Made by a program: the position numbers and the translations under genes. Under the pieces are notes generated by a model that searched no databases, was not told the DNA's origin, and saw only the letters and a list, made by a program, of their open reading frames with translations. This document shows, in pieces, positions 3,461-56,339 of a DNA stretch of 64,000 nt. This stretch comes from Octopus vulgaris (Eukaryota), in assembly GCA_951406725.2 (NCBI GenBank), contig OX597820.1, positions 58,280,001-58,344,000 of the forward strand, in the 5' to 3' direction. Position 1 is the first letter of the stretch. Each line of letters starts with the position of its first letter.

Positions 3461-4199
3461 TATGTATATAGATACATATATATATACACAAACAACAGAT
3501 GCATAAATTTCACCACGCCTTCAATCTGATAGCCCTTGATTTTCCACCATCAGCAAGAAAATTATCTCACTATGGAGTTCTCCCTTCACAAACCCATATC
3601 ACAGGATAACCCAAGCAATATATTATACCAATCGTTCGATGCTCTTTGTGTGATCGATGACCTCAAGTTTCCCATACGTTTATGAGTTTTGTATGTTTAT
3701 CTGTGAATCCTGTATTTTCTCGCTAATTGACTTTAAATGGGAACTGAACGAGTTTAGCTAGTATATATAAACAGATACAACAATCTTTATAACTTATCAT
3801 TTGAGGATCCGAAGTGTGACCTCCAGCAGCTCTCAAAATATTCAGTCTGGGATAAAATCCTTTTTGCTCTACCGAAAAGTATTGAGTGCTTGTTCATATA
3901 ATTGTATAGACAAATGTCTCGATTTAAGTATGGCGTATTCATGTGCATGTATGTATATACGTATATATGTAAGTATGTATGTATATACATATATATGTAA
4001 GTATGTATGTATATATAACTAATATAAACAGCTAAGCGAAATCCGATCCCGTAAAGGAAAAATTCAATTGTCACTAAATGTGACTAAGGGTGCCAAGACA
4101 CCGACAATGCTAGAAATAAGAGTTGAACTACTCTTAATTCTGTAGCAAGAGCGTAAATGTATACATACATGCTGACAGGGGGTTCTAACCGCCCCATCA

Positions 4200-4278
4200 C
4201 CCGACTCGAGAATCACTCAGACTAAACGTTTAGTTTCGCCTATTTCCGTAGGCTTCATCAGTGAGGATAGATGTCGGG
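4200..4278 (-). ncRNA. type I hammerhead ribozyme, canonical core
   Basis: Minus strand: cuca CUGAUGA A GCCUA-cggaaa-UAGGC GAAA CUAAACGUUUAG UC|ugag. Helix I cuca/ugag plus distal atc/gat and cccgac/gtcggg; 14-nt palindromic helix III; GUC site with cleavage predicted between 4220 and 4219. Confidence 0.9.
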
Positions 4279-5067
4279 CAGTTCCGTCTGTCGGTATATA
4301 AGTATTCATCATAGAAATCTATGTGTCATTTAGCGGAATGCTAATGTGTATACAAAAGATTATATATACACCATACATACATTAATTCAAGTAAATGAAT
4401 TAGATAACAGCAATTAATAATTACATAATTATTACATGGCTAACAACGTTTTCGTATCAGTCATGGAAACAGTTGTAGAAAAGATGGTATTTTTGAAATA
4501 TCAATGACGTTGCTTGTTTTCTATGCTTCCTCATATTCCGCTCTGTCCGCTCGTTTTAACCTACTTTAAGAATTTTGCAATGTCGTACCCACTTTACTGC
4601 CACATTGAAGTAATAGTATATTGGAATTGATATATTGGAAAGGATATATTAACGAATTAAGGTCTAGAATCCTGTGTACGTATGTAGGTGTTAGTGTGCA
4701 CATGTAAACGGTGAGACACAGAGAGGGAGGTGCATTTGTGTGTGTGTGTGTGTGTGTTGCTTTTCGCAATTTGAATGCATTATGGACAAATGGTAAAGAA
4801 GTTCGCTTTGCAATCTTGAAGTCTTGGGTTCGATTTCAGTGCGTGGCATCCTGGGTGAATGTCATTTGACTTGAGTCATCCCCAGCTTTGAGAATGACTG
4901 TGGGTTAACAAAAACCGTGTTGGGAGCCAGTGATCATGCTGGTACAGGCTAAGAATTACGCTAAGGGTACTATGTCTGCTAGTTCGATAAGTAGGTACGT
5001 TCATTTATTCGAACAGTGTACTTATTGTCGAAACTGGCTGAGACCGTTTTTTTTTACTTAGCCAATA

Positions 5068-29856: not shown

Positions 29857-31828
29857 TCACCTTGATCACCTTGACCGACCAGTCCGTCAGGCGTCCATTT
29901 GACACCGCTGGTCACAGCACGCTGTCCACTCCTCTCTGGATCGCGCCTTTCTCATCCACGTGATCCCAATCGTCCTCCTGAAATCGTAACTCCACCGTCG
30001 TGGAGGTCTTCCGGGTGGTCTTTTCCGCTCACGCGGGTACCACTCGAAAACTGGGTGCGTCCACCGATTATCGGTGAGCCGGGCGACGTGTCCAGCCCAT
30101 CTATACTTGCTGCGTGTATACTCTGCGATGACATCTCTCACGCCGGACTTCTTTCTGATGATCTTGCTACTTATGTGCTCTCTCAACGAGATACCAAGCA
30201 TTGAACTTTCCATGGCTCTTTGAGCCGTTACCAGTCTTTGCTCTTCTCTCTTTGTGGTAGCCCATGTTTCACTACCATATAACATTGCAGGCAGAACTGC
30301 ACTGTTAATGAGGTTGGCGCGGGTGGTCCTGTCCAACCTTCCATTGAGCACATCCCTTATGCCATTGAACGTCTTCCATCCGGCCCTTACTCTCCGTGAG
30401 ATCTCCTTTTTGATATCCCGGCACATATTTACTTCCTGTCCCAAGTAGACATATTCCCTCACCTCCTCTATTTCATCACAGCCGATCACCATTCTACCTG
30501 TTGGTACATTGTCTGACCGCATGAACTTTGTTTTCATGCGGTTCATCTTGAGACCTACTGCAGAACTTTTGATGTCGAGCTCCGTCAGCATAGTCTGAAG
30601 CTGATCCATGTTTTCAGCGATGAGTACGATGTCGTCAGCGAAACGGAGGTGAGTGAGGAGCTCGCCATTGATGTTGACACCACCTTACCGGTCGATGCCT
30701 TTGATGATCTGTTCGAGACATGCAGTGAAAAGTTTTGGGGAGATTGTATCTCCTTGCTTCACTCCCTTCTCGACCGGCACTCGTATGGGTGATGACAGTA
30801 GAGTTATGTCGGTGGTGCATCCGGAATTTGCCTCTCTGAGCAGCTGCGCATATTGCGCTTCGATTCCTTGCCACTGCAGCGAGTTTAGCACTGCGTTGGT
30901 TTCGATGCTATCGAAGGCCTTCTCATAATCTATAAACGCAACGCAAAGAGGCAGCTTGTACTCATTTGCTCGCTCAAGCAGTTGCGTTAGAGTAAATAGA
31001 TGGTCCATTGTGCTGTAGTTCTTCCGGAAGCCTGCTTGTTCCTTCGGTTGTTGTTCGTCGAGACGACGTGACAACCTGTTCAGAATTATCTTCGTGAACA
31101 GCTTGTACACGTGAGACAGCAGGCATATGGGTCGGTAGTTCTTTAGATCTTCTCTGTCGCCCTTCTTATACAGCAGGATGGTATTTGACTCTTTCTACTG
31201 CGAAGGAATTCTTCCCTCGTCTAGATAGTGCGTAAATCGCTCAGCGAGGATTTTCCAGAGCTGCTCTCTGCCTGACTTTAGCATCTCCGATGTTATACCG
31301 TCTTTCCCTGGAGCCTTTCCGTTTTTCATCGAGCCGATGACTCTTTCAACCTCACTGACAAGGATAGGTGGCACGTTTTCTTCCTGTTGGAGTGGTGGTA
31401 ACGGCTGGACATTTCTGGTAGACTTAAAGAGCTTGGTGTAGAAGTCTTCACAAACTTTTTCCATCTCGCTCTTCTCGTTGACCGGTATTCCATCTGTATT
31501 TTTCAGGGCCGTCACCTCCGATCTATATAGTACCATGTCCCTCTTGCATTTCTTGAGGCTCTTCTTTTCCTCTGTGGCCTTCAAGAGCTTCTCCATCCGG
31601 TATGCCTCAAAGTCTTTCTTTAGTTGCTGACGAATCACTCTGCTGAGAATGGAATATTCAAGGTGATCTTCAATAGTCCTCTTCATATTTTTCCTCTTCT
31701 CGAGTAACTTAGTAGTTTCTTCCGAGATTCTTCCCTTCTTTTCTCTTGGGCATACTCCCTTAGCCTTCCTTAAACACTCCTTCAGTTTCCCTATCAGTGA
31801 GTTGTAGTCATCGTCTATGTCGTCTCCT
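29857..31828 (-). mobile_element. young 5'-truncated RTE-clade LINE
   Basis: ORFs 31195-31686, 30685-31110 and 29887-30609 share one frame split by only two stops; KAPGKDGI, NYRPICLL, QAGFR, DYEKAFDS, GVKQGD, LRFADD, YVYLG, YGSETW, WAGHVAR, GRPPRRW; tail ggtgatcaaggtgat into (TA)n. Confidence 0.95.
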
Positions 31829-31859
31829 ATATATGCATGTGTGTAACATATGTTATGTA

Positions 31860-31913
<54 letters not shown>

Positions 31914-31915
<2 letters not shown>

Positions 31916-52663: not shown

Positions 52664-53799
52664 CACAAGGTTGGACAAAATAATGGAAACACTTCAAAAA
52701 TTTAAAACAAATTTTAATATAGGGTAGGACCGCCTTTGGCAGTAATTACAGCTTGAATTCTACGAGGTATGGACTCGTACAAAGTTTGTTTCCAAAGGAA
52801 TTTTTGTCCATTCTTCAGCTAAAACATTCTCTAGTTCTTGTAGTGATTATGGTGGAGAATATTGACTCCTTGTTTTTCTAAAATATTCAATAATATTGAG
52901 ATCTGTGGACTGTGGTTGCCAGATAAGATGTTCAACTTCACTAAAATGTTCCTTGTGCCATTCAGTAACTACTTCAGTTGTGTGAATTGGTGCATTATCA
53001 TCCTGAAAGATTGCGTTTCAATCCAGAATCAGTTCTGCAAACATAGGATGAATTTGATCAGATAAAATGCTTAAATAGTCTTGACTATTAATTCTGCCAT
53101 GAAGGGAAACAATTGGGCCGGAGGATTTCCAAGATATAGCCACCCCAGATCATCACAGACCCTCCTCCGTGTTTAACAGTTGGAAGAAGGCAGTCTGGGT
53201 CAACTGCTTCTATTGTCTGTATCCACACGTATACTCGGTTGGTGGTCGGAAATACGGTAAAGGATGACTCGTCCGAGAAAATAACATTCTTCCACTGCTC
53301 TAGGGACCAATTCTGTAGGTTTTTACTCCACTCTAAACGCTTTGCAACATTTGTTTTTGAAAGTAGTGCTTTTCTGATTGCAGCCCTCCCGTGAAATCCG
53401 GTTTTGTGCAGCTCCCGGCGAAAAGTTTTTGTGGAAACTGGGTTCTCGAGGTGGTCATTAAGCTCTGCAGTAGTTTTGGGGATTCTGATCCTTTCTAACA
53501 ATTAGTGTATGAGTCCGACGGTCCCTATCTGAAAGTTTGGGCTTTCTTCCGGAGTTTTGTTTCGACGAGGTTTTTTCCTCTTTCTCAAAGGCTGTCATTA
53601 CTTTAGAAACAGCACTTCTTGATACACCAAACATTTTAGCTGTTTTCGTTACGGTAGCGCCTGCCATATGAACACCAACAATTTTACCTCTTTGAAAGTC
53701 CGTTAGATCTGTCATTTTAATGAATTTTAAATATCTTTCTCTGATGATATCAGAAAAGAAACAGCTATCATAGCAAAACATATTAAGCAACACTAATAA

Positions 53800-53830
<31 letters not shown>

Positions 53831-53912
53831 AAACAAGCTTTTGAAGGTTTTATAGATATTTCAAAATTATGATGCTATGATGCTAGGTGTTGCCATTATT
53901 TTGTCCAACCCT

Positions 53913-55798: not shown

Positions 55799-56050
55799 TT
55801 ATATATATATATATAGTGTAGGTATCAGTTTAATACCTCTAAGGGATAATTAAATCCAAAGTCGCTCCTGGTTATTACCTTGGTAGGTACAGTCTTTTGT
55901 AAGGTTGTACGGAGTAGCAGGTGGTTCTGTTGGTAAACCGTAGTTTAGGTTATATAGGAGAAGAAAATGGATGTAATAACAATGGGAGACTTGTGGTTTT
56001 CGCTGGTATGCCTTTAATTTAATCAAATAGCAAAGAAGGAGGTGAAGGTA

Positions 56051-56101
56051 GCATTTACGATCGTTTCGATTTACTGGTTTAAGTAAATCTCTTCAGAATG
56101 C
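56051..56101 (-). ncRNA. type I hammerhead ribozyme, canonical core
   Basis: Minus: gcauu CUGAAGA GAUUUACU-uaaacc-AGUAAAUC GAAA CGAUCG UA|aaugc; 5-bp helix I, 8-bp helix II, palindromic ACGAUCGU helix III, GUA site. Confidence 0.9.
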
Positions 56102-56339
56102 GAATATAGATAGATGCATCGGTTAGGATGCGAAAATAATTGATACATGTGTGATGGTAATATAAACAAAGGTAATAAGTCTTATATTAAATTTTGTTCT
56201 TGCAGTGGTAAATTCGCTGGGTAGAGGTTTGATTGTGGTCGACTGGTTAGTTTCGTTGGGTAATTAGGACGGAACGAGTATTATTTAGGTGTGGGGTTCC
56301 TAGTTAGATTAAGCACATTTTTTCGCACGTGCCCCACAC

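Follow-up and report, generated by a model that had tools for sequence, protein, structure and literature searches.

A solo, decayed copy of a ~350-nt hammerhead ribozyme repeat in Octopus vulgaris, likely derived from a non-LTR retrozyme

The closest described relatives in kind of the locus analyzed here are the animal non-LTR retrozymes, with units of 350–390 bp in Mytilus and 330/350 bp in axolotl (Cervera and de la Pena 2020, PMC7229834). Solo retrozyme monomers were described in a survey of 31 vertebrates, three insects and a coral, and were suggested to be offspring unable to transpose (Li, Clavereau and Pollet 2026, 10.64898/2026.07.22.740005). The same preprint derives the retrozymes of Xenopus from pseudo-LTRs (pLTRs), and Penelope-like elements (PLEs) are the leading candidate source of the reverse transcriptase (RT) that copies retrozyme templates (PMC7229834; 10.64898/2026.07.22.740005). 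PLE insertions are recognizable by truncation at the 5' end, by partial tandems and inverted 5' copies, and by their targeting of microsatellites (10.1101/2021.04.23.441226), and PLE hammerheads are among those with an extra nucleotide after A9 (PMC4209133). The (+) hammerhead of CChMVd likewise has an extra A, A10, between A9 and G10.1; it tolerates A there and is faster with U (PMC3705267).

In a 64-kb stretch of Octopus vulgaris DNA (the whole stretch analyzed, hereafter the window) we find on the minus strand what is very probably a solo, decayed copy of a ~350-nt non-coding hammerhead repeat, likely a non-LTR retrozyme pasted in by a Penelope-type enzyme and likely functionless at this locus today. 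The family shares with the animal non-LTR retrozymes a type I hammerhead, a non-coding unit of ~350 nt with GC below 45%, head-to-tail junctions, a strongly self-paired predicted circle and the presence of PLEs in the same genome; it differs from them, as described in PMC7229834, in sequence, in its old copies of mostly 1–1.6 units, in the nucleotide after A9 and in a stable 5-bp palindromic helix III. This likeness is drawn from sequence, circles and cleavage being predicted. As in the solo monomers of Li et al. (2026), the window copy is one full-length unit away from arrays, to which it adds a 12-nt deletion in helix I. We class it as a solo monomer within a retrozyme-like family rather than as an active retrozyme. 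Unlike the PLE pseudo-LTR hammerheads of PMC4209133, it has no adjoining RT/GIY-YIG ORF, its helix II has 5 bp rather than 7–8, and its helix III is fully formed. The A/U preference in CChMVd matches the use of A and U in the octopus family (PMC3705267); CChMVd, the RNA of a plant viroid, shows no sign of being related, and the resemblance is one nucleotide. Literature searches on hammerheads in octopus and cephalopods and on octopus Penelope elements brought up no description of such a family. With it the known animal retrozymes gain an old family, while the locus itself matters little.

An intact hammerhead core in a damaged repeat copy

Positions 4265-4216 of the minus strand form a complete type I hammerhead in which core bases and all three helices are intact. 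The features of the copy are as follows, with motifs and helices read from the sequence:

4216..4265, minus strand: type I hammerhead core, 0/50 differences from the subfamily consensus
4265-4262 (CUCA) with 4219-4216 (UGAG), minus strand: helix I, 4 bp
4261-4255, minus strand: CUGAUGA
4259, minus strand: core G5; A (G5A) in the orthologous contigs of runs X4, X5, X7 and X10
4254, minus strand: extra A, lying after A9 and before G10.1; most family copies have A or U here, and some have C
4253-4249 (GCCUA) with 4242-4238 (UAGGC), minus strand: helix II, 5 bp, loop CGGAAA
4237-4234, minus strand: GAAA
4233-4222, minus strand: helix III (5 bp) and loop 3, a perfect 12-nt palindrome
4220/4219, minus strand: GUC site, predicted cut after C17, which is replaced by U in the X4, X5 and X7 orthologous contigs
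4010..4357, minus strand: solo monomer of the ~351-nt retrozyme-like repeat, from the post-junction start to the family's main fixed 3' end
between 4269 and 4268, minus strand: deletion of 12 nt from the distal 5' strand of helix I, shared by the orthologous contigs
4200, minus strand: inserted G, lacking in 20/20 other aligned copies and in the orthologous contigs of X4, X5 and X7
near 4185, minus strand: added A relative to the consensus of 12 related loci
4172..4178, minus strand: 3' arm of the outer stem, a worn remnant of a longer family stem
4288..4294, minus strand: 5' arm of the outer stem; changes at 4293 and 4295 relative to the family break pairs on the ribozyme strand
3940..4015: TA/TATG microsatellite abutting the 3' end of the element, probably the target of its insertion

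The invariant core (C3 U4 G5 A6 G8 A9 G12 A13 A14 and the A15.1-U16.1 pair) is present in 11/11 positions, with C17 at H17. The topology is that of type I, three helices with helix I open-ended, and in the window copy this fold has predicted competitors. The palindromic helix III and loop 3 would permit a dimeric hammerhead in tandem transcripts (PMC4209133). The initial annotation had pointed to a canonical CUGAUGA/GAAA core and a GUC site, which is borne out, and to an extra A, which is indeed at 4254 but is family-wide and already in print. Its remark that no ORF is nearby also holds, no ORF of at least 120 aa lying between 3361 and 20107 of the window.

A full hammerhead descriptor matched twice in the window and twice in 200 mononucleotide shuffles of it; at 0.01 matches per shuffled window, the hammerhead is more than chance. 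Rfam gave no hammerhead family at gathering score in the whole window, or at E up to 10 within 3800-4700, so the call rests on the descriptor together with family covariation; an Rfam match is a library score and not a defining biochemical feature of a hammerhead. A 29-nt pattern of the subfamily core had its one exact match in the genome at the window copy.

Outside the core the copy is worn. Consensus positions 3-354 of the repeat align to 1704-1361 of the fetched window locus (L001), making the window copy one unit from ~4357 to 4010, and the ~120-nt cassette first proposed is the central part of this ~350-nt unit. Relative to the consensus of 12 related loci it has 28/289 substitutions and three indels outside the core. 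The 12 nt missing between 4269 and 4268 are present in almost all aligned relatives, which continue with the deleted letters at 4267, and their absence is common to the orthologous contigs, so that the deletion predates that split. Ancestrally, the deleted strand paired with the 3' helix I extension; what remains of helix I in the window copy is the proximal 7 bp and a U bulge. The term "intact" therefore fits the core and not its surroundings, where these 12 nt are lacking.

This history also changes how the pairings around the core are read. Both atc/gat and cccgac/gtcggg can pair in a constrained fold, but they are not a designed helix I extension: the former is a remnant of the ancestral helix and the latter a shifted register left by the deletion, which needs the added G at 4200. 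The outer ends ctgacag/ctgtcgg, said to close a rod, form 6/7 pairs with a C.A mismatch on the ribozyme strand, and the tatata that follows is present but belongs to the longer outer stem of the family, here worn. An intact, purpose-built rod with loop 2-helix I contacts is thus unsupported; the rod is a segment, damaged by deletion, of a 350-nt mobile repeat, and that reading of it is further weakened by a weaker predicted hammerhead fold than in the consensus and by G5A and C17U in the orthologous contigs. The hammerhead is nevertheless the most complete one in the window and, by prediction, a fair in vitro candidate, which is the part of its proposed rank as best active-ribozyme candidate that stands. 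No target-site duplication of the window copy was recognizable by eye, both flanks being TA-rich.

The repeat family and its ends

The genome search suggested for the cassette, run with 4150-4310, gave 40 scored matches out of 54 candidates on many contigs. With 4020-4360 as query there were 1433 first-look candidates, the scored copies being 70–85% identical, and with a relative as query 893; the best 40 candidates were scored in each DNA search (of up to 1433). Non-self matches among the scored copies were 70–89% identical, none near-identical. A consensus unit of 352 nt was built from 71 distinct loci out of 94 fetched, which were picked by similarity to two queries, so that the counts below do not describe a random sample. 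The unit is non-coding, carries a type I hammerhead and, at 351–352 nt and 41.6% GC, lies within the ~170–400 nt and below the 45% GC of non-LTR retrozyme units.

Head-to-tail junctions were found in the 31/71 loci longer than one unit, and the same junction occurs in contigs of other organisms. The 5' starts of the 71 loci are scattered over the whole unit. At the other end, 43/71 stop within ~12 nt of the unit's terminus; in 37 of these 43 a microsatellite follows within 30 nt. Among 90 segments, 51 have their 3' end at unit positions 340–360 and 18 at 290–319, a weaker second cluster. An adjacent inverted arm is joined at the 5' end in 10/71 loci, and in 4/10 of these two-armed insertions one arm ends at each 3'-end cluster. 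L043, L021, L041 and L052 are head-to-head and two-armed, their two arms ending near unit positions 350 and 300, respectively. Together, the main fixed 3' end, the second end ~50 nt earlier, the inverted arms and the microsatellites lend modest support to a dependence of retrozymes on PLEs.

An array of two full units was found in 0/71 loci, the longest being 571 nt. Young arrays were absent among the best 40 matches of each of three DNA searches and from the matches to two exact patterns (1 and 3 matches). No active master thus came to light. By the definition of Li et al. (2026), an active retrozyme is a run of two or more consecutive units whose hammerheads are complete, and the window copy is one unit. 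A partial dimer at L025:1430-1992 (region G000:C1:74724275) has a pair of hammerhead cores separated by 331 nt; one retains every invariant base and has a GUU site, and the other is broken. The loose ends of a 660-nt contig of depth 34 from run X24, guessed to be RNA, match this locus by eye. L025/X24 is the best lead for an expressed family member, and it may be DNA or a passing transcript.

The hammerhead is a property of the family. In 21 aligned copies, the 14 core pairs were formed in 88.1% of cells, a value reached by 0/500 shuffles and compared with 21–38% in slid controls, and stem pairs were swapped between subfamilies in all three helices. Two-sided changes were found in 4/14 core pairs, a pair count that does not beat shuffles (147/500). 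All 11 invariant bases and H17 were kept in 22/69 hammerhead-spanning segments, and 6/69 passed the same full descriptor used for the window, which indicates that intact cores persist among decayed copies; a seventh match (L081) was an unrelated hammerhead. The family hammerhead was presumably under selection in its masters.

The history of the window copy may be sketched on the model of animal retrozymes in print (PMC7229834; 10.64898/2026.07.22.740005). Ancestral active masters would have been transcribed as tandem RNA, in which each hammerhead would cut its own GUC to give monomers that are then circularized. A Penelope-type reverse transcriptase/GIY-YIG enzyme would nick TA-rich microsatellites and copy the template from a fixed point, continuing across the junction, which would leave 1 to 1.6 units and in some cases an inverted arm. 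With its single unit and hammerhead, the window copy would allow at most one cut in a passing transcript and release no circle.

Predicted folding and the orthologous locus

The subfamily unit (351 nt, 41.6% GC) has a circular fold with z = -5.0 against 60 shuffles, and its consensus folds into an extended rod that, at minimum energy, has the hammerhead at its end. RNAalifold on 21 copies recovered helices II and III alone, and missed the long rod because the copies are too decayed; the extended family rod is a prediction from folding a consensus. In ViennaRNA, the probability of the full hammerhead was 0.002–0.071 for the window copy in seven contexts vs 0.13 for the subfamily consensus, and 0.003 vs 0.21 under a looser constraint. 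Since ViennaRNA omits core and tertiary contacts, these values are underestimates in absolute terms and useful only comparatively. For 4300-4165 the predicted minimum-energy rod disrupts the hammerhead, which is still the minimum-energy fold in the shortest context (4280-4205). In vitro cleavage by a trimmed transcript of the window copy is predicted to be plausible, somewhat better than an even chance in our judgment. In the 2026 preprint, 8/9 tested dimer elements failed to cleave in vitro (10.64898/2026.07.22.740005), which calls for caution in reading activity from sequence.

Runs X4, X5 and X7, with three organism labels and from three studies, each contain one contig over 4109-4720, with 16–19 differences in 611–612 nt (~3% diverged) and one gap. 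All three have, in plus-strand terms, C4259T and G4220A, that is, G5A and C17U on the ribozyme strand; they do not have the G at 4200, and the 12-nt deletion is present. A 234-nt contig of depth 2 from X10 also has G5A. Rather than a hammerhead conserved by the host, the orthologues thus show G5A in 4/4 runs and C17U in the 3/3 that cover the site, and G5A is a standard inactive hammerhead control (PMC4075628). The four G5A runs share other differences and so probably represent one lineage with one event per site. Two changes in the orthologous core compare with 1.3 expected (from 16 in 611), which fits no constraint. At the level of sequence these changes show loss in that lineage, and they bear on the window's own lineage indirectly. 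Two runs of organism F gave no orthologous contig, an absence that proves nothing, and two runs guessed to be RNA gave no contig from the locus, which is evidence neither for nor against its expression.

Alternative explanations and neighboring elements

In favor of a retrozyme pasted in by a Penelope-type enzyme, an RT element with a C-terminal GIY-YIG domain is abundant in the genome (148 GIY-YIG matches among the best 150 scored), with many 781-aa frames; L101, for instance, has RVT_1 and GIY-YIG. In one alternative, the unit is the pseudo-LTR or 3' end of an autonomous PLE surviving only as truncated copies, instead of an independent retrozyme. The family shows the PLE hallmarks listed above, with its 5' truncation, its partial tandems, its inverted arms at the 5' end and its microsatellite targets (10.1101/2021.04.23.441226), and this alternative also gains from the pLTR origin proposed for Xenopus retrozymes (10.64898/2026.07.22.740005). 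However, what continues upstream of the unit is the tail of the same ~350-nt unit (31/71 loci) and not an ORF. The consensus has no similarity to two full RT/GIY-YIG (Penelope-like) loci, so that a partner element was not identified. Only 1/30 GIY-YIG loci held a family copy, on the opposite strand and ~1.3 kb away, and no copy joined to an RT + GIY-YIG ORF was found at the window copy, at the 30 GIY-YIG loci or at two longer loci. The 5-bp helix II and stable helix III are also unlike the minimal PLE hammerheads described in PMC4209133. On this evidence we regard a pseudo-LTR origin as improbable.

At L137:1266-5070 and at L138 lies a young PLE, RT followed by GIY-YIG, with 781-aa frames in many copies; two of its copies share 93% identity across 3.9 kb. 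A hammerhead-like motif lies near the 5' part of L138.

Another alternative is co-option, in which the host keeps the hammerhead for cutting a through-running transcript and the deletion and inserted G build a new helix I. Put as a domesticated relic, the core would be kept under selection, the stem rebuilt by insertion and a host transcript cut, the sister lineage having lost this function through G5A. The 50-nt core has 0 changes where ~5 are predicted from the copy's own rate outside it (28/289; P = 0.006); ten subfamily peers have 4–10 changes per 50, and at their mean the window core's 0 has P about 0.0005. The exact match to the subfamily core pattern, the only one in the genome, and the inserted G, which completes a 6-bp stem, point the same way. 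Against this, the ~3% diverged orthologous contigs have G5A and C17U, the predicted fold is weaker than that of the consensus, and the 6/69 family segments passing the descriptor mean that intact cores occur among decayed copies. Moreover, the window hammerhead was chosen for looking intact, and its unmutated core, which runs counter to a relic, is explained only by having selected, from many copies, the one that looks best. The locus is unlikely to have a function; co-option as such, and its domesticated-relic form alike, we hold to be very improbable, more so than a pseudo-LTR origin. Were the ribozyme co-opted, a mobile ribozyme would have been turned to host use recently and in one lineage, a rare case for which a close relative supplies a natural G5A control. 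Under the preferred reading of a solo, decayed retrozyme-like monomer, the lesson is that function can hardly be read from one repeat copy whose core looks intact.

A chance hammerhead match in repeat-rich DNA, in line with the lack of an Rfam match, is refuted by the family evidence (the 22/69 relatives that retain the invariant bases and H17, and the covarying helices) and by the 0.01 descriptor matches per shuffled window.

Several other features were seen in the window and in fetched flanking DNA. A second, unrelated minimal type I hammerhead, with a long helix II, a short palindromic helix III and a site ending in UA, lies at 56100-56051 on the minus strand (within about 55830-56330). It belongs to another dispersed repeat of ~530 nt, with 688 candidates, best copies 82–90% identical and several inverted arms; 8/12 fetched loci of this repeat passed a loose descriptor, and no linked ORF was seen at these loci. 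More unrelated hammerhead-like motifs lie in flanking DNA at L081:2659 (plus-strand offset) and L098:690 (minus strand). On the minus strand of the window, 29887-31914 is a non-LTR retrotransposon reverse-transcriptase region, which we take to be RTE-like, split by stops into three in-frame pieces, and 53088-53874 has two overlapping frames that presumably represent a frameshifted Tc1/mariner transposase.
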